A stretch of 64,000 bases of DNA from Emiliania huxleyi CCMP1516 (GCF_000372725.1 NW_005201287.1:527081-591080), one strand, 5' to 3'. Counted from the first letter of the stretch, positions 20,461 to 55,730 are shown. Numbers and translations: made by a program. Notes: a model not told the origin generated them from the letters alone.

Positions 20461-22114
20461 ATGAACGGCGAAGCGAGCATCCGCTGCGTCGTCCACCTGC
20501 GCGGCCTTCTCTGGTCGTGCACGCCTGACGACGTGCGAGCATCTGTCTCGCCGCTCCTTCCTGCCCGTTGTTTCTTGCACGATGTCTTCCTGCCGCTCGA
20601 TGCACGGGCGCGCCCCTCCGGCACCGCCGTGCTCGTGCTGCACGCGGAGCGGCCTGCCGCCGCCTCGAGCGAGCGCAGCGTCGACGCGGCGGTCGCCGCC
20701 GCCGCACGCCGCATCGCAGTCGCTCTGGACGGCGCGGTCGTTCGCGGCGATGACGATGCCTCAGAGTCCGTGCGCCACCTCCGTGCCACGCCTTCGTCCG
20801 CCCGCGCGCTCAAGGAGAGCCGCGCCCGCTCGTCTGCCGCCGCCGCTCGTGCTTTGTCGCTCGCGCCGCAGAGCTTCAATGCAGGCGCCGCAGCCGCCAC
20901 CACTGCCATTGCCGCTGCTCCGAGCCGTCGTGACTTTGTCGTCGTCTGCCACGCGGCGGCGGCGGCGGCGAGTGGCGCCTTTGAGCTGTCGGACCTCAGC
21001 CGTGGGCGCGTCGACCTCATCGCGAGGTGATCCCTCTCCTCCTCGCCCCGCACGGTCATGTCCAGATCACGCCCAAGACACGTCCACAACACACGACCAC
21101 CCCGTTCTGCAGATGCGCCTCTGCCGCCCTCTTCACGTCGCACGGCGTCCGGCGCGGCTGCCGCCTCTGGCTGCCTCTCGTCGGTGCGCTCCGCCTCGCC
21201 ACCCGCACACTGCCCGCACACAGGGCCGCCACCTCAGACGCGTCCACCGCGCACCTCACCCTGATTCCGCGCCACAGCCCGCGATCATACCCTCATCTTC
21301 GAGATTGTATTTGTCGAGGCGCCCACCACACTCGCGTGTCCGTCCAGGCGGCGGCCTCACCCTCTGTCTCGACGGAGACCGCGCGCGCCGGCTGAGGCCC
21401 GGCGAGCGCTCGACCTATCGAGCATTGGCGAGGATTACTTACTTCATACGTCGAGCTTACAGGCCCGACGAGCGCTCAATCGCCGCGCCTCTCCGCGTGG
21501 TGCTGAGGCGGCACGTGCAGGAGGTGGTGCCCGGGGGGGAGGAGGAGGCTGCGGCCTCGGACACGGCTGCAGCACCCGCCGGTGTGGCTGGGGAAGCGGA
21601 GGGGGGTGGTGGGGTGGACGGCGGCGGCGAGGGCGGCGGCGGCGGCGGCGGCGGCGAGCGTGGCAAAGGAGGTAGCGGTCTCGGAGGCGGCGAGTGGAGT
21701 TCGCAAGGGTGGAGCGTGCACGGTGGCGACAGCCTCGAGTCGCTGCTTGACAAGCTTGGGTGCGCGTCGGCGGAGGGGGGGCGGTGCGGCGGGCGGGGCG
21801 CCTGCGGTGGCCGCACGCGGCTGGTTGCGCTGCACGAGGGCGGCGGACCGCTCGGGCGAGTGGTCGCCTCCAGCGCCGCGCACGAGGCTGGCGGGCGGGC
21901 GGCTGGCGGCGGGCGGGAGGCGGGCGAACCGGCTGGTGGGGAGAGGCGGAGGGTGGTGGCAGTGCTGGGGGACCACCTCGGCCTTACGACGCAGGAGGAG
22001 GAGGCGCTTCGGAGGCGCGGCGCCGCCTTCTGCACGGTCGGCCCGACGGCACTGCTCAGCAGCCACTGCATCGTCCTCGCCCACCACGCCCTCGACATCC
22101 TGGATGCGGGGTGA
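20461..22114 (+). CDS. trmY: RRM-like domain fused to TrmY-family SPOUT tRNA (pseudouridine54-N1)-methyltransferase
   Basis: Predicted exons 20461-21026, 21113-21183, 21348-21396, 21463-22114. Spliced protein: RDFVVVCH...FELSDLSRGRVDLIARCASAALFTSHGVR...LCLDGDRARRLRPDERSIA...LHEGG...VLGDHLGLTTQEEEAL...VGPTALLSSHCIVLAHHALD, collinear with TrmY motifs (GRxDxxxRC, SHxxR, PDERS, LxDH, LGP, H, LD). N-terminal VHLRGLLWSCTPDDV...RPSGTA resembles an hnRNP F/H-type RRM. Confidence 0.85.
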
Positions 22115-29112: not shown

Positions 29113-29534
29113 CATTTTGATATTGGGTCGTGTGCGCAGCCCAGCCAGGGGGGCGGTCTGATGTGAGAGAGAGAGAGATTCTCTCTGATGTGTGTATAGA
29201 GATTGAGAAGGAGGTGGGCGATATCTTTTGTGGCATTAATTTCTAATCATTGCCTTTTGTTAGAATCTCGCTCTTGCCACTTACGCATCCGGCATCCCTC
29301 GCCACGCCGAGGCCCTCGGCCCACAAAAAATGCGAGGTATCACGACTGAACTGATGACAAGTCACAAGAGCATCGCAAACGCCAAACCTGTCCTTCCTTC
29401 CCTGCCGGCTGGGGCGACCACACTATTTTTCATTCACTGGGACTGAAGCGATCTAACTTGAGTTGATGGGAAAAAAAATCGCGCGCGTGATAAGTCCTCC
29501 TGCGGCCGGGACAAAGGAAAGGACCCTCACCAAC

Positions 29535-31844
29535 ATGCTCCTCCTCGCGGCTTCCAGCGTGGCTCTTCCGACGGGCGCGGAGCCCCAGCGTCACAGCATC
29601 GAGTTCGGCCTCGACAGCTTCAAAGCGCTCGCTCACACGTGGCTCGACCTGATGCAGAGCGGAACCTCGAGCACGGTGTCAGCCGGGAGCAGCAGCGCCG
29701 CAGCCGAGCCACCACGCGCAAACGGCAACCAAAGACAACCTCTCGGGCTTGTCGTGAGCGGCGGCGGGTTCAGGACTATGACCGCCGGGATGGCCTTTGC
29801 ACGCGCAATGTCCCAGTCCTTTGACGAGGTGGAGGGCAGCTCCTGGGCAGACGTCACGCATCTCGGCGGCAACTCCGGCGGGCAGTGGTTCGCGAGCCAG
29901 TTTGCGCTCTCGAGGCCATTCTTCGACGCCGTCACGCGCAAGGGCGCAGATGGCGAGTATCGGAGCCTCGAGGACTTCTTTGCGGAGTGGGGCCGTCAGT
30001 ATGCCAAGGGTCTCTACTTTTCGCCTCCGCCCGAGGTGCACGTGTACAACAACTGCGCAGGCGAGGAAGGTGTCGGCGGGCTCATTTCAGACGCCCTCAC
30101 TGAGGCTTTCAAGTCTCTCGGCTGGGCGCTCGAGACTGCCAACTTCCCGACCGACGACTGGGCCGTGTACGTCGAGGACATGATGCGCAACTCGATCCCC
30201 GGCTTCGAGCAGCTCCGATACAACGAAACGCGCTCCGCACTGCCCGACGCCGCGCTCATTCAGCAGCTCGCGCTCCCGCCCGACGCGTGGGTGGGGCACT
30301 CGAGGCAGACATCGCAGCGCGTGGCGCTGCGGCAGCCCGAGGACGGGAGGCCCGTCGGGGCGACCGTTCCCCTGGCGCACGTGGCCAAGGCAGCCTCCTC
30401 GCAGCGTGGCACTGACGGCTGGCTCGCGCCGGCGCTGGGCGGCAGCCCACTCCTCTCCAAGGCGCCCTACTCGTGCAGCTGTGAGTGGACGTACTGGAAC
30501 GCGTGCCCCGGCCAGCCCAAGGGCGCCTCGTGGCTGAGCCCGGTCGCGTCGGACGACGGCTCGGCGTGCTTCGCGCACTGCTGCGGGCGAGGGCGCGACG
30601 CGTCCGCCGCGAGCGACGCCCCGGCGCGCACCATCGAGGTGAGCGCGCGCTTCGCCTCACCGGCGGGCACGAAGGTGCGCGATGTGACGGCCGCCTCCTC
30701 GGCAGCGGTCGGCGCTGCGGCCTCGCCCACCCTCGTCAAGCTCGCGTTGAAGCGCGCGCTGCACGGCGCGACAGAGACGCTCGAGATGTTGGCCAACGGC
30801 GGCAGTGGCGAGGCGCAGGCTGCTCTCGGCCTCAAGGCGTGGTTGAGCGGGGAGGCGGACGCCGCCCAGTTCGACTCGCAAGTGGACGAGTTTGTCGAGT
30901 CGTGCTTTCCGTTCGGCCTGCAGGAGCTCGGCGTCGGCATCCCGCTCGAGCCGGCGGAGGAGCTGCCGGAGGACGAGACGCGCGCGTGGTCCCCCACCTA
31001 CCGCGCCATCGACGGCGTGTACGTCGACAACACGGCGCTCGCGATGACCATCGCCACGATGATTGCCGACTGCGAGGCTGGCGACGAGAGCCTCGCTTGC
31101 ACCAACAAGGAGCTGGACGTCATCGTCGTCAACGACGGCGACTCGTCCAACCCCGGCTCCAACGGGCTCGGCGACTTCTTCTCCGAGGAGAAGGGCGGCG
31201 CCGCCCATCCAGTTGGCAAGTACAAGACCGCCGAGGACTTTCCCTACACCACGGTGCCGTCGGCGCACATCTTCGCCGAGGCTTACCCTAGCAACTGGGT
31301 CACCTACCACCAAACCGACATCGTCGACACGATTGCAGCCGTCGGCGACACCTCTGCCGTCGCCGTGATGGCTGCCGGCGCCGCCCCCGCCGCGGGCATC
31401 ACCATGGGCGTCGGCACCACTGTGGGCGCCGCCGCCTCCGTGGCTTCCGCCCTCGCCTCCTCCGCCGCCGCCTCTGCCGCGTCCGCAATGGAGGGGACGA
31501 AGGCAGCCGGCGGCCGGCGTCGGCGCCTGGCCAGCAGCGAGGTGGGCGCATCCCGCTCCAACTTCACCAACTCCACCCTCACCACGATCAACAACCCGCA
31601 GTGGGGCGTCAAGGAGGGCTACACCGTGCGGCTGCTCGCCTTTTGCATCAACTACCCAAACAACCCGATGCAGATGCTGCAGAATGGCGGCGTCGGCATC
31701 GATGACGACCCGATGGTTCTGCCCGCCCTCACGGCCGCCACCTTCTTCAGCCATTTGTACGCGCCGATTGCCGAGAAGGAGAGTGAGCTCGCTGCAAAAC
31801 ACCTCAAGGCGTGGCTGGAGGCGCGGGCGCAGCGCAAGTCGTGA
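29535..31844 (+). CDS. Secreted lysophospholipase / phospholipase B / cPLA2-type (patatin-fold) hydrolase
   Basis: LGLVVSGGGFRTMTAG (oxyanion hole plus Arg), THLGGNSGGQWF (GxSGG nucleophile), YRAIDGVYVDN (catalytic Asp region); signal-like MLLLAASSVALP; single long exon. Confidence 0.8.
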   Translation: MLLLAASSVALPTGAEPQRHSIEFGLDSFKALAHTWLDLMQSGTSSTVSAGSSSAAAEPPRANGNQRQPLGLVVSGGGFRTMTAGMAFARAMSQSFDEVEGSSWADVTHLGGNSGGQWFASQFALSRPFFDAVTRKGADGEYRSLEDFFAEWGRQYAKGLYFSPPPEVHVYNNCAGEEGVGGLISDALTEAFKSLGWALETANFPTDDWAVYVEDMMRNSIPGFEQLRYNETRSALPDAALIQQLALPPDAWVGHSRQTSQRVALRQPEDGRPVGATVPLAHVAKAASSQRGTDGWLAPALGGSPLLSKAPYSCSCEWTYWNACPGQPKGASWLSPVASDDGSACFAHCCGRGRDASAASDAPARTIEVSARFASPAGTKVRDVTAASSAAVGAAASPTLVKLALKRALHGATETLEMLANGGSGEAQAALGLKAWLSGEADAAQFDSQVDEFVESCFPFGLQELGVGIPLEPAEELPEDETRAWSPTYRAIDGVYVDNTALAMTIATMIADCEAGDESLACTNKELDVIVVNDGDSSNPGSNGLGDFFSEEKGGAAHPVGKYKTAEDFPYTTVPSAHIFAEAYPSNWVTYHQTDIVDTIAAVGDTSAVAVMAAGAAPAAGITMGVGTTVGAAASVASALASSAAASAASAMEGTKAAGGRRRRLASSEVGASRSNFTNSTLTTINNPQWGVKEGYTVRLLAFCINYPNNPMQMLQNGGVGIDDDPMVLPALTAATFFSHLYAPIAEKESELAAKHLKAWLEARAQRKS

Positions 31845-32112
31845 GCCTCACGTGATGTTCAACGCATGATCTAGCGGCTAAGACTTAGAAACGCTAAGGG
31901 ATAAGGGAGTGCAGCGCCCCGCGTGGCTAGACACCGGCGAGTGCGAAAGCAACCAACGATGATGTTTAATGCATATAAGGTTTTTGTAGTAACAACAGCT
32001 CTGTACGAGAGCAGAGCCCCTGAGCAAACCTCCGTGCTCGGAGCGTGTACTGTGTACACGACTCAGTGTAAAAAGTACGTCACCCACTCACATGACATGT
32101 CGTACTTTTAGC

Positions 32113-34470
32113 TTACTGGGAGAAAAGGGAGAGGGGGCTGTCCGATGTGGCGGCAAACTTGATGTCCCTGCGAGAGCGCCTCAGCTTAGCGACCGCCGCC
32201 TTGTGCTTCCTTCGCTCCGCAAGAGTCAGGTCCGGCGAGACCCCACCGTTGCCCTCCCCCTCCTCTCCTGCAACGCCAGCTATGCTCGTGGCACAAATGA
32301 TGGCCTGCGTCAGCGTCCCGACGAGCTCCTTCGCCTCATCTACCGTGGTGGCGACTAGCGCCGCGTCGAAGCCCTCGGACGGGGCCGGCCGGCTCAGCTC
32401 ACTCGCAAACTTGTGCACGACAGCGGCCGCTCGCTCTCCGGCCGGCAGCGTCGGGTGGCGCCTCCGCACCATCACGCGCCCGAGGCACTCCTCCACCGGG
32501 AGGTCGAGGTGCACGCTGGCGACAACACAACCATGCTCGCGGCCGAGGGCGACCCACGGTTCCCGCTGAGCCGGGTCGGCGTTGCAGCGGTCGATGATGA
32601 CGCTGCGCCCCGCCCGGAGCGCCTCTGTGGCGGCCTCGATGCACAGCCTGCGGGTGCCACACTCATCCTGGCTCACGTGTCGCAGGCGCCGCCCGACCGC
32701 CTCGCCCAGCTGCCCGCACAGGGTCGTCTTGCCAGAGCCAGGCAGTCCCACAAGAGTGAGGAGCAGAGGCTGGCCAGCCACGGCATGGAGCGCCGCACCC
32801 GCTGTCTCCTCGGGCGGGGGGAGGCGTCGAGCCGCCTCAATCGCCGCCTCCACCTCTCCAATTGGCGCATCGCGAACCCACTCCGCTCCGCCGGTAAGGG
32901 ACAGTCGGCGCAAATCGGCCGCCACCTCGTCATACAGCGGCCGGAGGCGGGGGAAGTAGGAGAGGAACTCGTCGCCCTCGCGGCAGCGCGCAACCTCGAG
33001 CAGGCGCCGCCGCTGCAGTCGGGGATCGGCACCCCCTCCCGAAGCAACGCCCTCCTCGCCGGGCGGAAGGCGGTGCAGCGCCACGTAGCCGGGCGACTTG
33101 ACTTTGATCCGGCGGAAGGCGGAGTCCACGCAGACAAAGCCCTCCTGCTCCACCGGATTGAGTGCGCACGCCGCTGCCTTGACGCTCGTCAGGTCATGCG
33201 GGCCGGGAAGCTTGCGCGGCGCCGCCCAGCCGAGCTGCGCAGCCGCCTCCTCGACGTCCTCCTCCACGAGCGTCGTCAGATCCCGCGCGCCGATGAGGGT
33301 GAGCGACGCTCTGGAGTGCCTCACCACGATCGTGTTTCCCGGAAGGCAGAGCTCAAAGGTGTAGCAGCGGCCGGTGGGCTCAGGCAGCCGGTAGCCCGAC
33401 GCCGCAAACGTCTCCCAAAAGTGCGAGGCGAAGGTCCCGACGCCCACTCCCGGCACCTCGCCCGCTGCGTCGGGCACGCGCATCGACGAGACGTGCCAGC
33501 GGTCGCAGTGGTGGTAGAGGGTGGCGATCGAGCCGTCAAGCTTCTCGTACACGCGCGCCGTGCTCCAGTCAAAGGCCTTGCGGACGGCGGCCGCCGCCGG
33601 CTCGTCCGCGTTGAAGAACTTTGTGAAGGGCAGCGCGACCACCCTCCAGCTCCCCTTCTCGAGGATGAGCCCGCGACACTCCTGGACAACCTCGTTGGCG
33701 AGGTCTGACTCGCGCTGCGAGTACGAGAGCTGGACGAGCGGCAAGTGCGGGTGGAGGCGCGAGGTGAGCTTGTAGGCGCTGCAGAGGGACGTGAGGTTGG
33801 CGCCAGAGCGCAGCTGTCGGACGATGCGGAGCGTGGCACGCTCGTCGCGACGGCGCGAGGCCTTGGCCGAGGTGCTGCAGCTCGCTAGCGGCACGAGGGT
33901 CGGTGGGTCAGCGCCTGCTGCAGCGCCCACGGCGGCGACCGCCGCCTCTGACGTTTCCTGCCCCTGGAGCCAGGAGGCCCTCTGAGCAAACGAGTGCAGA
34001 GCAGCCACGAACTCGCCGCGCGGGTTGGCGCAGCGGCGCGCTTGCCGGACGGCGGCTAGTGCCTCGTCAACGCCAAGGCCGCGATACTTGATCAGGTACG
34101 CCATCACCATCGTCGTGGAGCGGCAGATTCCCGCCTTGCAGTGGCAGAGGACAGTTCCTCCCTTGGCCAAGTGCAGGGCGATGAAGTCAGCGGCTGGGTC
34201 GAGGTGTCGACCAGCCTTTGCGTGACTGTCGTCCTTCAGCCGCACGTCTAGGTAGGTGAACGTGTCCACGAAGTGGCAGCGGCATCCACACGCGATGATC
34301 GCAGTGACACCGGCGGCTTGCAGCTTCTCGCGGTTGGAGGCAAACGACTCGCCGGATAGGAGCAGCTTTGAGCTTTCCGTGTCGAGGATGACTGCGGCGC
34401 CGACCGGGCCGTGGCGCTGGGCCACAGGAGCGCGCGGGGCGCCGTAGGCCTTGTTGTTGCGCTTGGGCAT
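32113..34470 (-). CDS. Tri-domain protein: dual-specificity phosphatase + T4 Rnl1-like ATP-dependent RNA ligase + P-loop polynucleotide kinase (AAA_33)
   Basis: DSP signature VLCHCKAGICRS (about 34117-34150). Ligase motifs ECRGLIL, LPFTKFFN, YEKLDGS (motif I, about 33529-33549), YTFEL, EGFV, RIKVK. Kinase LVGLPGSGKTT...VSQD...VIIDRCN...RRHPTL...EGF. Intronless; ATG at 34470. Confidence 0.9.
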   Translation of the reverse strand: MPKRNNKAYGAPRAPVAQRHGPVGAAVILDTESSKLLLSGESFASNREKLQAAGVTAIIACGCRCHFVDTFTYLDVRLKDDSHAKAGRHLDPAADFIALHLAKGGTVLCHCKAGICRSTTMVMAYLIKYRGLGVDEALAAVRQARRCANPRGEFVAALHSFAQRASWLQGQETSEAAVAAVGAAAGADPPTLVPLASCSTSAKASRRRDERATLRIVRQLRSGANLTSLCSAYKLTSRLHPHLPLVQLSYSQRESDLANEVVQECRGLILEKGSWRVVALPFTKFFNADEPAAAAVRKAFDWSTARVYEKLDGSIATLYHHCDRWHVSSMRVPDAAGEVPGVGVGTFASHFWETFAASGYRLPEPTGRCYTFELCLPGNTIVVRHSRASLTLIGARDLTTLVEEDVEEAAAQLGWAAPRKLPGPHDLTSVKAAACALNPVEQEGFVCVDSAFRRIKVKSPGYVALHRLPPGEEGVASGGGADPRLQRRRLLEVARCREGDEFLSYFPRLRPLYDEVAADLRRLSLTGGAEWVRDAPIGEVEAAIEAARRLPPPEETAGAALHAVAGQPLLLTLVGLPGSGKTTLCGQLGEAVGRRLRHVSQDECGTRRLCIEAATEALRAGRSVIIDRCNADPAQREPWVALGREHGCVVASVHLDLPVEECLGRVMVRRRHPTLPAGERAAAVVHKFASELSRPAPSEGFDAALVATTVDEAKELVGTLTQAIICATSIAGVAGEEGEGNGGVSPDLTLAERRKHKAAVAKLRRSRRDIKFAATSDSPLSLFSQ

Positions 34471-35442
34471 GGCTAGCGGGTCGTGGACGCGTTCGGACGC
34501 GTCGTGAGGGGCGTAAAACCCCAAAAAGTTTTTTTGTGATCGGGGGCACGGGACGCGGCACAGAAGGGGCACAAACGTCAGGCTACAAACACGGGGAGGC
34601 ACGTAGTGACGCAAGGGAGTCTAGGCGACGGTGGCGTCCTCCGACGCCGCGGCGAGCCTGCCTGTGACTGAGCTCGGTCGGTCGCAATCTCATTCGCCGC
34701 CGCGAGCTGCAGCGCGACTGACATGCGCTGGGCCTGCAGCGACAGCCACGTAGACCGCGTCGACCAGCTCGCCTCGTCCTCGTGCTGCCGCTTGGAGAGC
34801 TTGATGCTTGTTGCGCATCTTGTCCTTCATCATTCTGGTAGACGCAGCCGCTTGACCGCGTTGCACACCGGAAAAAGGTTTCTCGACCAGGTACGTCTGT
34901 ACGTCGGTGTCCGAGCGCGAGAGGGCGGCGTGCGCGGGTGCGCGTAGTCCGCCTTCTTGTTCCGACGCTTTCGCCCAGTCCCGTGCCTGCGGAACATCTG
35001 AAGGCTGTCTCGCCGGAGGCTCGCCCCAGCATCTCGGGTTCACTCGCCCCCCCGGGCAAGAAGGGAGGACCCCGTGAGGCGTGGGAGTGATTGGGGCCGG
35101 CTTTGCTTTTTCTCTCCGTGAGGACGATGGCTTCTAAGGAAGCCGTCGTCTGCGCCTTGTCGTGTGAATCGTGCGTGTGCGAGAGCCTTTTGCATCTGTA
35201 AGAAAAAAGAAGATGCTGACGGAAAGTGTGGTCTGAGCGCCTTGTAGGTGGCATGAAGGTTGCAGCGAGAATCGGCGAGGGACTGCGAAGGGAGATAGAA
35301 AGAGGCAGACGACAAAGGGTTAGGGTGGGCGACGGCTAGCACCACACTCCTCTCCTTAAAATCATCGTGTTTTCTTCTTTGAGCGCCTTGTACTCGAGTA
35401 AAAGTTCTGCCACCCCTCGCCGCTGAAGACAGTGCTCTCGCG

Positions 35443-36288
35443 ATGCCCAACATGGACGTCTCGCTGGACGAGCTCATCGCTTCGAACGCCAAGCAGGCGT
35501 CGAAGAAGCCGGGCCGCGGCGGTGGCGGGCGCGGGCGCGGCGGCGGGCGCGGCGGGCGCGGCATCACAAAGCCCGGCAAGAGGGCGGTTGTGGTCAAGAA
35601 AAAGGCCGGTGGTGGTGGTGGCGGCGGCCGGAAGCGGCAGGGCGCCGAGGTAAAGATCGGAGCTATGACGGATATCAAGCTCGCGGCGGGCGCCGTCGCC
35701 AACATGATGCGCGAAGGGACGCCGCCGAAAGTACTCGCCATCAGCCCGACGTGCGTCAACGCGGCCGTCAAGACGCTCGCGCTCGCCCGCCGCTACCTCG
35801 AGGAGGAGGGACTCGAGCTGATGGCGACGGTCGACTTTCCTGAGTTTGACGAGTCGGCCAACTCGGTCTCTCTCTCTCTCTCTCAAAAGCCCTCCTAATC
35901 CTTGTCTTCCTGCAAACCCTCACGGGCTCGGTCGTCTCCTCTCCAGGCGAACGTCGCGCTGCACCTCTCTCAGAAGCGGAAGCGGACGGACCTGTCGACG
36001 GTCGCGGCGCAGCTGCAAGTCTCCTCCTCCTCCGAGCCGTCCAAGGTAGCGGGCGCCGTGGCAGGCACGGCCCGCGAGTGCGCAGACCAGCCCGTCAAGC
36101 GGCTGTGCGTCTCGTGCGCCGGGCCGGCGGCGATGCTCGTCTCGCTCCAGGCGGTCTACCTCGCCCGCCGCTACCTCGAGGAGGACGGGCTCGACCTCTC
36201 CGTCGTGCCAGAGTTCGAGAATGTCGAGCGCGGGCCGTCGATCGTCCATCTCTTCACGCTCGTGCACAAGCCGAACGCGGCGCTCTGA
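35443..36288 (+). CDS. Tandem SpoVS-domain protein with N-terminal ALYREF-like (MDxSLDxxI) motif and RGG tract
   Basis: Exons 35443-35865 and 35947-36288 (GT-AG, phase 0). Two SpoVS-like units: VKIGAMTDIKLAAGAVANMMR...CVNAAVKTLALARRYLEEEG and LQVSSSSEPSKVAGAVAGTAR...AGPAAMLVSLQAVYLARRYLEEDG..VVPEF, compared with SpoVS LKVSAKSxPNSVAGAxA...GAGAxNQAVKAxAIARGF...PAF. Confidence 0.8.
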
Positions 36289-48570: not shown

Positions 48571-48727
48571 CAGGGCAGGGCCCTGGCTAGTGCCATTTCA
48601 CTGTGGCACAGCTCGCGTTACAAAACCTTGATTTGACCATTTGCGCCATTTTGTCCCTCTCGGTGCCTTCCAGAGGCAGCTGCGACCCCGCCAAGTGGAC
48701 GGGGGCACTCGGCAGGTGGCGCGGAGT

Positions 48728-48827
48728 NNNNNNNNNNNNNNNNNNNNNNNNNNNNNNNNNNNNNNNNNNNNNNNNNNNNNNNNNNNNNNNNNNNNNNNNN
48801 NNNNNNNNNNNNNNNNNNNNNNNNNNN
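48728..48827. other. Assembly gap (100 N)
   Basis: Run of N. Confidence 1.
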
Positions 48828-53417: not shown

Positions 53418-55730
53418 ATGACCCTCCGCCGCAGGATGTCCAGAGGCCGCAGCGCAGAACGCCGCATGTCGACTGCCAAGAAGGACGCCGCGCTCACGGT
53501 GCTGACAGTTGCTTGCGGGTACGACGACTCTCTCCGCGCCTGGGTGGCCCAGCGCATTCGCGCGTACGCCGCTCGCCACGACTATACCGCGCAGGTCTTC
53601 CTGCGGGCGTGGGACGAGCGCTGCGACTCCTCCTCCTGGGAGAAGCTCAACCGTACGCGCGCGGCGCTGCGAGGCGGCGCGCCGTACGTGCTGACGGTGG
53701 ACGCGGACGCGGTGATCCTGCCGACCGCGGGCAGCCTGAGAGATCAGTGCGCGGCGCTCGACGCGGCCGGCAAGACGTGGGCCATGTCGGACGACGAGAA
53801 CGGGCCCAACGGCGGCGTGGTGCTGTACAAGAACGACGCGCGCACGCTTGCGATGCTCGACGAGATGGCGGCGCAGGAGCAGGCGCTGCGGTCGGCCTGG
53901 CTGGCGCCCTTCCACTGGGAGCAGCGCGCCTTCATGTACGCCATCGGCTCGTCGCACTGGGCGCTCAAGAACCGGCTGCAAGGATGGCTCTCGCTCCCTT
54001 CCTCGCCAAACAGCGCCGCCTACGCCGCTACAAAGGGCGCGCTCGACCCGCAGTGGAACACGCGGCTCGACGACGCCTCGCCGCGCCGGTCGATCGTCCA
54101 CCTCGCCGGCGGCCCGCGCGCAAAGGCGACCAAGCCGGCGATGATGCGAGCGCTGCTGCGGCTGGGCGCCACCAACGCGGGGGTACCGCGCGCACCGCTC
54201 CCCCCGCCCGGCACTGTCGCGACAGCCTCTGCTTCTGACCCCGCAGCTGCTCTCTTCCAGGTCGTGCACCGCTTCACTCCCGGCACTGTCGCGACCCGCG
54301 GCATCGTGGCGGAGGCGAGGGGCGCGTGGGCGGGGCAGGGCTTCCGGCTGGATGAGGTGAGCGAGATAGAGCCGAGATAGAGCTGAAGATTCGCCGAGGT
54401 GTATAGACGAGAGAGATAGCCGGGGCCGACACCATGGCCTCCGGCGCTCGGTGGGGTGAGAGGTGGCCGCGCTCTCGGTGCGAGGTGTGTCACGTAGTAG
54501 AGCACCGAGAGAAGGTGTGTCACGGAGAAGGTGTGTCACGTAGTAGAGCAGGAGAGGCGACGAGAGAGTAAGGCATCCTCGACGCGCGGCACATAGGTGA
54601 CCGACCGGTCGGTGGCGCTCGGCCAGGTGGGGCGGCTGGCACACGGCGTGTGCGGCCTCCCTCCCCAGGTCGGCCGCCGCTACCTGCGCGCGTACACCCA
54701 CCCGAACACCTCCTTCGTGCAGCGGGCGGACATGTGGCGGTACGCGCGGCTGCTCACGCAGGGGGGGGTGTACGCGGACGGCGACGCGTCGCCGACGCCG
54801 GCCTTCCTCGGCGAGTACGCGCGCCACATCTCCGAGGGAGGCGAGATCTGGACGAGAGAGAGAGCCGTCATAGAGCCGAGAGAGCGCGCGAGAGCCGAGA
54901 TGAGCAGAGAGAGAGCAGAGAGAGTGCACAGATATCTAGCTTCACATCTCGCGAGGGCGGCGGCGAGGGGCTCTGGGACGGTTGCTGTGGGACCGCTGTG
55001 TTCCTAAGAGCCACGCGCCAAGTCTCTCTCCCAACTTGGTCCCTAGGCGAGGGGCTGCTCTTCTGGGAGACGCCGATCTCGGGCGAGTGGCGCTACCCGT
55101 GGGTGAAGATCGGCGCTCTCACCGGCATCTCCCAGTACGCGCGCATCCCGGAGATGGCGCAGTTTGTGATGGCGAGTGGGCGCCCGTGCGCGCCGTGGCT
55201 CAAGGCGCGCTCCTTCGTTTGGACAGTCAACTCAGTCTCCCAGTCGCCCTCACCCCCCGCGCCCTCNNNNNNNNNNNNNNNNNNNNNNNNNNNNNNNNNN
55301 NNNNNNNNNNNNNNNNNNNNNNNNNNNNNNNNNNNNNNNNNNNNNNNNNNNNNNNNNNNNNNNNNNTTTTTTTTTGGGAAAGAAAAATTAATTTCCCCAG
55401 GGGGCCCTTCCCCCCCCCCCCCCCCCCCCCCCCCCGCGCGCCCCTTCCTCTCAAAAGGCGCTCGTGGAGCTCGTGGCCGACCGTGTCTCTCGCTTCCACG
55501 CGACCGGCGGATTCGAGCGCCGCAGTATGCATGGCAGCCAGGACCGTTCCGTCGTCTACCACACCCTCGTCACAACCGGCCCGGGCGCTCTCACCGACGC
55601 GGCGCGCAACCACCCCGCCGCCTTCGCAAATGTGACGCGGCTTCCGCTCTCCGTCCTCTGGCGCACCGTGCGGCACGCTTCGATGCACTCGTGGCGCATG
55701 CTGGCCTCTCGTGCCGCCGCCGGCGCGTGA
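53418..55730 (+). CDS. Two-domain glycosyltransferase: GT34-like followed by GT32-like (Och1/Gly_transf_sug), multi-exon, spans a gap
   Basis: Domain 1: YAARHDY, SWEKL, VLTVDADAVI (DxD), NGGVVLYKN, WEQRAF, IVHLAG. Domain 2: VQRADMWRYARLLTQGGVYADGD (DxxRY..GGxYxDxD), QFVMAS, TTGPGALT. Confidence 0.7.
55267..55366. other. Assembly gap (100 N)
   Basis: Run of N. Confidence 1.

Follow-up and report, generated by a model that had tools for sequence, protein, structure and literature searches.

A putative phosphatase-ligase-kinase protein for RNA repair encoded by a single intronless gene of Emiliania huxleyi

Results

The gene and its three domains

The DNA analysed here is a 64,000-nt stretch of Emiliania huxleyi CCMP1516 (the window; overall guanine-plus-cytosine (GC) content 0.65). 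On its minus strand lies a gene whose predicted product joins a dual-specificity phosphatase (DSP), an Rnl1-type RNA ligase and a polynucleotide kinase. In the open reading frame (ORF) listing, the open frame runs over 32113..34614 and its first ATG is at 34470. Counted from this ATG, the whole coding frame (32113..34470) comprises 785 codons and a stop at 32113-32115. All parts of the gene described below are given in window coordinates and lie on the minus strand. A second copy of the gene was not found within the 64-kb window.

The order in the 785-residue protein is DSP, Rnl1-type ligase and kinase. Pfam places DSPc at residues 40-162 (E 2.7e-22, 79.4 bits versus a cut-off of 33.5), RNA_lig_T4_1 at residues 264-462 (E 5.1e-12, 46.6 bits versus 28.3) and AAA_33 at residues ~570-680 (E 9.8e-15, 55.5 bits versus 27). 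The linkers between all three domains in 32113..34470 contain no stop and the domains share one strand. Because three separate domain matches stand in one frame, each above its curated cut-off, the arrangement is far beyond chance. A sequence-only reading of this DNA, which did not mention the strand, had proposed these same three domains in one chain, and the Pfam scores agree with it; the motifs that it had listed are each intact, standing in the protein as HCKAGICRS, EKLDGS, TFELC, EGFVCV, RRIKVKS and GLPGSGKT.

A full-length AlphaFold (AF2) model built on a 33-row alignment has a mean predicted local distance difference test score (pLDDT) of 76.5 and a predicted template modelling score (pTM) of 0.48. 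It contains three folded units at residues ~26-165, 212-550 and 566-728, with low-confidence linkers between them and a low-confidence tail after them. The model leaves no room for a fourth folded domain, and the mutual placement of the three domains is undefined in it.

RNA-library contigs and public annotation

Contigs of four public runs were aligned to 31900-34800. Two of them come from RNA libraries: a metatranscriptome contig of 2468 nt (run X5) spans 32006-34474 and an RNA-Seq contig of 2423 nt (X8) spans 32108-34474. The two others, of which the RNA status is a guess, are a contig of 2386 nt (X1) spanning 32101-34486 and one of 4736 nt (X6) spanning 31900-34586. The three domains are thus colinear on transcript-sized contigs from RNA libraries. 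The sole listed joint, from 34603 to 34679 in X6, is upstream of the frame, and no joint inside the frame is listed in the contigs of the four runs. Since the frame also has no stop, we regard the gene as intronless, as had been suggested from the sequence. A splice at the 5' end was considered and rejected. The X8 contig diverges just upstream of the ATG, and its letters are absent from the window at up to three mismatches; to the eye they differ little from the upstream sequence of the window itself, and the divergence was therefore read as a strain difference and not as an exon.

The protein belongs to a 90%-identity cluster of 19 members. Six of the 15 listed members are 775-778 residues long, and all six carry all three domains. 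The NCBI and UniRef entries of the locus (P0166, P0167), which lies there on a 1.18-Mb contig, consist of a 123-residue DSP piece. Because the gene model is such a fragment, the architecture is invisible in protein databases built on the public annotation.

A 37-base stretch (32101-32137) covering the end of the frame and the stop recurs in three of the four runs (X1, X6 and X8), in many contigs that are otherwise unrelated and that have loose ends on either side of it. The stretch has the look of a short dispersed repeat, or else of a common 3'-end element, and it probably explains why P0002 ends unlike the protein of the window.

Ligase module

The ligase module occupies residues 205-545 (32836..33858) and consists of N-terminal helices, a nucleotidyltransferase core that gives the RNA_lig_T4_1 match, and a helical C-terminal part. 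Motif I is EKLDGS (residues 309-314; 33529..33546), which aligns with KEDGS of T4 Rnl1; Lys310 is the predicted AMP-accepting lysine. Motif III is TFELC (residues 371-375), and motifs IV (EGFVCV, 443-448) and V (RRIKVKS, 453-459), together at 33094..33144, align with EGYVAV and FKIKS of T4 Rnl1. Upstream of motif I, ECRGLIL and TKFFN (33610..33681) are elements typical of Rnl1 enzymes and align with ECRGIMF and EKFFN. Residues of the ECRG and KFFN elements are reportedly essential in T4 Rnl1. Among 66 aligned ligases 13 columns are invariant, including residues of motifs I, III, IV and V: the K, D and G of motif I, E373, E443, G444, R454, K456 and K458, as well as R266, F285 and N287 of the upstream elements, are the same in 66/66.

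When a profile of nine members of the ligase family was searched against solved chains, it matched T4 Rnl1 (three entries, E 3.6e-8 to 2.6e-7), and the other match had an E-value of 0.19, which is chance level. Trl1 was not matched by this profile at E <= 1 among the solved chains. The alignment to T4 Rnl1 pairs ECRG, KFFN, KxDGS, FE, EG(F/Y)V and KxKS and ends just after motif V. An AF2 model of residues 205-545 has a pLDDT of 90 and a pTM of 0.87, and its best fold match is again T4 Rnl1 (E 2.5e-13, TM-score 0.58-0.61, 310-317 of 341 columns, root mean square deviation 5.6-6.5 A), followed by archaeal Rnl3 and the ligase domain of fungal Trl1 (Trl1-LIG, 4.1e-10). Over the structural alignment only ~19% of the residues are identical to T4 Rnl1. 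Viral relatives of ~370 residues share the helical C-terminal part. By its motifs and sequence profile, then, the ligase is a member of the Rnl1 family, nearer to the phage type than to Trl1, and the predicted fold, judged over the whole module with the C-terminal domain specific to the clade, probably agrees; the first assignment of the domain as Rnl1-type fits this.

Kinase domain

The predicted P-loop polynucleotide 5'-OH kinase, with the AAA_33 match, covers residues 566-715 (32326..32775). Its membership features are present, namely a Walker A motif of the form GxxGxGK(S/T) and a downstream Asp. The P-loop GLPGSGKT (residues 575-582; 32725..32748) aligns with the P-loops of 9drz and 9d8a, and SQDE (32662..32673) pairs with NQDD of the Mucorales enzymes; its Asp602 is predicted to activate the RNA 5'-OH. 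The best solved relatives are the Mucorales RNA 5'-OH kinases 9drz (E 2.1e-20) and 9d8a (E 5e-20), followed by the kinase domain of mammalian PNKP (1.8e-8). The Mucorales kinases phosphorylate 5'-OH RNA in vitro and function in tRNA splicing in yeast, and their conserved Asp beyond the P-loop has been linked to activation of the 5'-OH (PMC11571804). Judged from its sequence, the domain is of the polynucleotide 5'-OH kinase type, and the earlier call of a polynucleotide kinase gains from the fact that the nearest solved chains are proven RNA 5'-OH kinases.

Phosphatase domain

The DSP domain (residues 40-162; 33985..34353) has the P-loop HCKAGICRS at residues 110-118 (34117..34143), with Cys111, Arg117 and Ser118, which aligns with the HCxAGxSRS loop of DUSP14. 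In the solved chains of DUSP2 and DUSP1, Ser stands at the position of the P-loop Cys. Asp80 (34231..34233) aligns with the Asp of the 'veD' or 'laD' loop of DUSP2, DUSP1 and DUSP14 and is predicted to be the general acid, a role that we assume from what is known of DUSPs. Both features of DSPc membership, the HCx5R(S/T) loop and the general-acid Asp, are therefore kept. The best solved matches are DUSP2 (1e-16), DUSP14 (5.3e-16) and DUSP1 (1.9e-15).

Pfam found no HAD, 2H or other healing domain in the protein at E <= 0.1. Because of this, and because the model has only three folded domains, the DSP is the only candidate in the protein for the 3'-end healing slot.

Linker and tail

The linker between phosphatase and ligase (residues 165-204; 33859..33978) is rich in Ala and Ser and has no Pfam match. 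In the full-length model residues 152-184 form a helix and pLDDT is below 50 at residues 183-211. The C-terminal tail (residues 721-785; 32116..32310) has low pLDDT at residues 730-748 and 759-785. It contains a basic stretch, ERRKHKAAVAKLRRSRRDIK, that is kept in P0099, a stand-alone relative of the kinase.

Distribution of the fusion

The exact DSP-ligase-kinase architecture was found, among 20 relatives sharing words with the protein, only in the gene's own cluster. A search with the DSP region among long proteins also returned only this 90% cluster, but such a search needs shared words and covered proteins of 431-1374 residues, so it is weak evidence of absence.

An exhaustive search of representative sequences gave 17,698 matches at E <= 1e-3. 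The best 150 of the 17,698 were considered, and 30 of these (long, multi-stretch, DSP-only or kinase-only rows) were scanned with Pfam. DSPc together with RNA_lig_T4_1 was present in four of the 30 (P0034, P0035, P0042 and P0130); three of the four also had AAA_33 and two an AEP prim-pol. A member of one of these clusters, P0164, has all three domains. Two of the recurrent fusions are from Amoebozoa (P0034, Pyxidicula; P0035, Cavostelium). Their domain order is kinase-DSP-ligase, unlike the DSP-ligase-kinase order of the window protein, and their DSPs are 24-36% identical to that of the window, with local E-values of 1e-11 to 7e-4, compared with 1e-16 for human DUSP2 in a much larger database. 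The active-site Cys and Arg of the phosphatase are retained in P0034 and P0164. The two amoebozoan proteins (1244 and 1341 residues, respectively) have an AAA_33 kinase, DSPc, AEP prim-pol (PF23162/PF18188) and an Rnl1-type ligase in one chain, which places a primase-polymerase inside a putative RNA repair protein.

The ligase tree was made with FastTree from 149 ligase domains and has SH-like support. It omits 18 rows: nine further members of the gene's own cluster, two cluster-mates of P0164, and seven fragments or intein-split rows. The DSP-linked ligases are spread over three positions, for which well-supported branches require two origins or more. The DSP label is no more clustered on the tree than chance would have it, since a value as low was obtained in 53 of 500 shuffles. 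The ligase of the window belongs to a clade of seven (support 96), in which its partners (support 98) are proteins with a ligase only, including one of the haptophyte Chrysochromulina, and in which it adjoins ligase-kinase-MJ1316 proteins (P0003, P0006) and a protein in which a cyclic phosphodiesterase (CPD) is joined to the ligase (P0008). Further out, ligase paralogues are fused to terminal uridylyl/poly(A)-type transferases, an RNase T-type exonuclease, a Pol-beta nucleotidyltransferase or R3H. From these relationships the family appears to be a ligase-centred module with interchangeable end-healing parts, for which a cysteine phosphatase seems to have been picked more than once.

The protist-type paralogues in general (P0003, P0006, P0008, P0012, P0014, P0016, P0018, P0027, P0037, P0054 and P0161), with fusions to MJ1316, 2H CPD, transferases, Pol-beta, RNase T or R3H, are by their sequences a rich and uncharacterised set of RNA end-processing architectures. 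In P0019 and P0126 a LAGLIDADG endonuclease interrupts the ligase domain shortly after its start, and P0126 also has a Hint module. This insert looks like an intein inside an RNA ligase.

The nearest ESM Atlas clusters are a fungal tRNA ligase, a plant tRNA ligase and a bacterial ligase-kinase; all are below 0.9 and serve as leads only. No large cluster with a DSP is among those listed by the Atlas.

Origin and viral relatives

The GC content at third codon positions (GC3) of the frame is 0.83 (0.80, 0.86 and 0.83 in its three parts), compared with 0.76-0.88 in five neighbouring frames. The nearest ligases are eukaryote-type paralogues with 53-62% identity, among them the Chrysochromulina protein. 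No relative was found when viral contigs were scanned with the whole protein. A scan with the ligase alignment found 173 relatives with 27-40% identity, the best having 39-40%. Neighbourhoods of 80 loci were kept from the 173, and 63 distinct ORFs were extracted from them; the ligases are stand-alone ORFs, mostly of 359-416 residues. A DSP match near the ligase was present at none of the 80 loci, and a kinase match just downstream of it at seven of the 80. The phage collection gave 132 matching records, of which those listed are annotated as RNA ligase.

The lack of introns had been taken as a hint of a viral, horizontal or retroposed origin. The data do not support this hint for the recent past, because GC3 fits the neighbouring genes, the nearest ligases are of the eukaryote type, and the viral ligases are distant, stand-alone and without a DSP nearby; a recent viral or horizontal origin was rejected on these grounds. 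An ancient link exists between the eukaryotic and phage Rnl1 ligases.

At one viral locus, in a phage (L046, 5022-5975, plus strand), the gene directly after an Rnl1-type ligase gene encodes an AAA_33 kinase joined with an HD phosphohydrolase domain, which is a candidate end-healing pair.

Neighbouring features in the window

Two adjacent plus-strand frames, 35443-35898 and 35902-36288, are divergent from the repair gene, and each contains SpoVS (PF04232, E 5e-12 and 2.2e-16). The N-terminus of the first is rich in Gly and Arg. The SpoVS domain is familiar from sporulation in bacteria, and a tandem pair is unusual in a eukaryote-like genome; the two frames may be one two-domain gene. The uninterrupted plus-strand frame at 29463-31844 (793 residues), in which Pfam matches nothing at E <= 0.001, is convergent with the repair gene, and ~270 bases separate the two stops. 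Farther away, a plus-strand frame of 510 residues (20582-22114) ends in a Methyltrn_RNA_2 match (E 2.7e-8) and may encode an S-adenosylmethionine-dependent RNA methyltransferase. Runs of 100 N at 48727-48827 and 55266-55366 are assembly gaps.

Discussion

In the 5'-phosphate pathway, neither RNA repair nor tRNA splicing can do without a 3'-end healer. The healers known to us are HAD acylphosphatases, binuclear metallophosphoesterases and 2H phosphodiesterases (PMC3592404, PMC2190708). The protein of the window has a predicted 5' kinase and a predicted ligase, and in the remaining position it has a cysteine phosphatase, a class not yet shown to heal RNA ends. By analogy, the protein would do in one chain what the T4 Rnl1/Pnkp pair does in two, by another phosphatase chemistry. 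The likeness to the T4 system lies in the motifs and upstream elements of the ligase, in Rnl1 as the top structural match and in the logic of 5' kinase, 3' phosphatase and ligase. In T4, the phosphatase of the healing enzyme is a DxDxT (HAD) acylphosphatase, in a protein separate from the ligase (PMC3592404), whereas in the window protein all parts are fused and the phosphatase is cysteine-based. Our preferred reading is that this protein acts as a self-contained heal-and-seal enzyme for RNA breaks, in which the DSP would likely be the 3'-end healer, and we hold its chances to be about even.

We infer the enzymatic activities, the RNA substrate of the phosphatase and the biological target alike, and the following course of events is plausible. 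A transesterifying nuclease would cut the RNA and leave a 5'-OH end and a 2',3'-cyclic or 3'-phosphate end. The kinase, through GLPGSGKT and Asp602, would phosphorylate the 5'-OH. The phosphatase, through Cys111, Arg117 and Asp80, would strip the terminal 2'/3' phosphate via a cysteinyl-phosphate intermediate and yield a 3'-OH. Lys310 of the ligase would then be adenylylated, AMP would be transferred to the 5'-phosphate and the ends would be sealed, in the manner of T4 Rnl1 acting on tRNA anticodon loops. In this scheme the initial half of 3' healing is the least secure step. To our knowledge cysteine phosphatases are monoesterases, so a 2',3'-cyclic end may need to be opened beforehand; it could be opened by another enzyme, as a CPD-bearing paralogue exists in the family, or by a putative diesterase ability of the DSP. 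Candidate targets would be tRNAs repaired after stress or virus attack, or splicing.

Several known systems resemble the protein in part. Trl1 and AtRNL also combine an Rnl1-like ligase and a P-loop RNA kinase in one chain, and the window kinase resembles the Trl1-related kinases of Mucorales. However, the window protein has no 2H CPD and no tRNA_lig_kinase or tRNA_lig_CPD match (PF08303 is absent from the 16 families at E <= 0.1), its order is phosphatase-ligase-kinase and not ligase-kinase-CPD, and its ligase is nearer to T4 Rnl1. Identity as a Trl1-type tRNA ligase was rejected because of the missing CPD, the other domain order and the ligase type. The stand-alone Mucorales kinases MciKIN, RazKIN and LcoKIN are the closest solved relatives of the window kinase, with P-loop and catalytic Asp aligned, and differ from it in being separate enzymes; they are GTP-specific through a G-loop serine (PMC11571804).

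The fungal 'Swiss Army Knife' (SAK) proteins (PF22547 2H-SAK, PF22784 PTP-SAK; for example P0021 of Aureobasidium) offer the clearest earlier case in which a cysteine phosphatase is part of a putative RNA repair protein. A single chain holds their cysteine phosphatase, AAA_33 kinase and ATP-dependent RNA ligase. The SAK proteins add a 2H phosphoesterase and use a PF09414 ligase, and Pfam found neither 2H-SAK nor PF09414 in the window protein. Their phosphatase is of a different subfamily, as the window DSP scores E 0.085 and 13.3 bits on PTP-SAK versus a cut-off of 27. An identity with the fungal SAK proteins was rejected, since the phosphatase subfamily and the ligase family differ and the 2H domain is missing. 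No paper on the SAK proteins was found in the literature, and they are known here from their Pfam names, by which the idea is already present in curated form. The kinase-DSP-(AEP prim-pol)-Rnl1 proteins (P0034, P0035, P0130 and P0164) share the same three Pfam families with the window protein and, in P0034 and P0164, an intact Cys and Arg. They differ in that the kinase comes first and the ligase last, in the AEP prim-pol of two of them, and in ligases ~40% identical to that of the window and separately placed on the ligase tree. No characterisation of them was found in the literature.

The bacterial Pnkp system works with Hen1 and an Rnl4-type ligase. In this system, that is, Clostridium thermocellum Pnkp, and in lambda phosphatase, the healing of RNA 3' ends falls to a fold that is familiar from protein phosphatases, in these cases a binuclear metallophosphoesterase fold and not a cysteine phosphatase. 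Lambda phosphatase hydrolyses nucleoside 2',3'-cyclic phosphates (PMC2190708); a 'protein phosphatase' fold can therefore do 3'-end healing.

The sequence-only reading had suggested that the DSP fills the 2'/3' end-healing slot. Two observations speak for the suggestion: the DSP is the sole candidate in the protein, and fusions of cysteine phosphatases with ligases recur; the activity itself we infer from sequence. The same reading had found the architecture unfamiliar. This holds for the exact order, which was met only in the gene's own cluster, and was overstated for the combination, since DSP with an Rnl1-type ligase recurs in Amoebozoa and other assemblies and the SAK proteins provide a precedent. 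No paper on a cysteine phosphatase fused to an Rnl1 ligase was found in the literature, and the 2016 comparative-genomics review of RNA repair systems by Burroughs and Aravind may cover such fusions. Because DSP-Rnl1(-kinase) fusions are recurrent and apparently independent and fungi have a PTP-kinase-ligase architecture, a role of the DSP in RNA repair gains weight. It may be that cysteine phosphatases of the DSP and protein tyrosine phosphatase (PTP) types are true RNA 2'/3'-end healers, recruited repeatedly and independently in eukaryotes, and that this protein is a complete one-chain repair machine, but we put this wider proposal forward tentatively and would lean slightly against it.

A number of points weigh against a repair enzyme with a healing DSP. 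The phosphatase looks, from its sequence, like an ordinary DUSP; it resembles protein-directed DUSPs, its best matches being MAP-kinase phosphatases, and its sequence gives no pointer to RNA. No named RNA-acting cysteine phosphatase is found among the 27 solved chains matched at E <= 1e-9. We found no precedent for the opening of a 2',3'-cyclic phosphate by a cysteine phosphatase, and neither a 2H domain nor another diesterase is present in the protein. A 2'/3' phosphatase would work against the ligase by acting before it, should the ligase, like Trl1, depend on a 2'-phosphate. After the closest DSP elsewhere (P0081, 61% identity) comes unrelated sequence instead of a ligase, and the closest kinase elsewhere (P0099, 51% identity including the basic tail) is a protein of 283 residues without ligase; because of these two, and because only its own cluster was found, the fusion looks young and restricted. 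The ligase tree has FastTree SH-like support only, and one DSP pair in it was flagged as a long-branch join. Assembled contigs do not prove transcription, as DNA carry-over is possible. Finally, every activity is a prediction from the sequence.

The most serious alternative is that the ligase and kinase repair or splice RNA and the DSP is a protein phosphatase acting on a phosphoprotein partner or regulating the enzyme, the 3' end being healed by another protein, for example a separate 2H phosphodiesterase. We consider this unlikely. The protein DUSPs as best matches of the DSP and the retained general-acid Asp would agree with it, as would the CPD-bearing paralogue P0008 in the family and the missing ligase of P0081. 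However, fusions of a cysteine phosphatase to an RNA ligase occur in several distant lineages in varied orders, with at least two origins and most with a kinase, which is hard to square with a lineage-specific regulation; moreover, no other healing domain is present in the protein.

A DSP that acts at the 5' end, like PIR1/DUSP11 and baculovirus BVP, would trim 5'-triphosphate RNA to the 5'-monophosphate, and primary transcripts would then be open to the ligase alongside 5'-OH ends healed by the kinase. RNA 5'-tri/diphosphatase activity (PIR1/DUSP11, BVP) is the only RNA-directed activity of the cysteine phosphatase superfamily that we know of, and kinase and 5'-phosphatase would both supply the 5'-monophosphate for the ligase. 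This possibility is quite improbable, as the DSP keeps the general-acid Asp that RNA triphosphatase members are known to do without, none of its top solved matches is named an RNA phosphatase, and the protein would then lack 3'-end healing altogether.

There is a similarly small chance that the ligase is Trl1-like and joins 3'-OH,2'-phosphate ends, and that the DSP removes the junction 2'-phosphate in place of the NAD-dependent Tpt1, which would make the protein the tRNA-splicing ligase of the cell. Its kinase is indeed closest to tRNA-splicing kinases, and the nearest ESM Atlas clusters include, as a lead only, fungal and plant tRNA ligases. The Mucorales system likewise has no recognisable CPD (PMC11571804). 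On the other hand, the ligase is nearer to T4 Rnl1 both in sequence, where Trl1 had no match at E <= 1, and in fold (2.5e-13 versus 4.1e-10), the protein has no CPD to generate a 2'-phosphate end, and the exact architecture is limited to one 90% cluster, unlike what would be expected of an essential housekeeping enzyme.

That the three-domain protein is an artefact of adjacent genes read through in a GC-rich genome is hardly credible, for although spurious long frames are abundant at 65% GC and the public annotation (P0166, P0167) has only the DSP piece, the domains share one frame and strand with linkers free of stops, contigs of all four runs, two of them from RNA libraries, extend over the whole frame, and six independent assemblies give products of 775-778 residues with all three domains.

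If the proposal of a self-contained repair enzyme with a healing DSP is true, a cysteine phosphatase in the healing slot would be a new chemistry for polynucleotide end healing, and one that is directly testable. It would also widen the substrate range of a superfamily whose members are mostly taken to act on proteins, lipids or RNA 5' ends. Should the wider proposal hold as well, the HAD, binuclear-metal and 2H healers would be joined by a further catalytic class, and lineages such as Mucorales, in which a 3'-end healer of tRNA splicing has not been found, would have a candidate kind of enzyme for this step. The case rests on more than one gene, as the same pairing occurs in Amoebozoa, fungi and other protists in varied arrangements.

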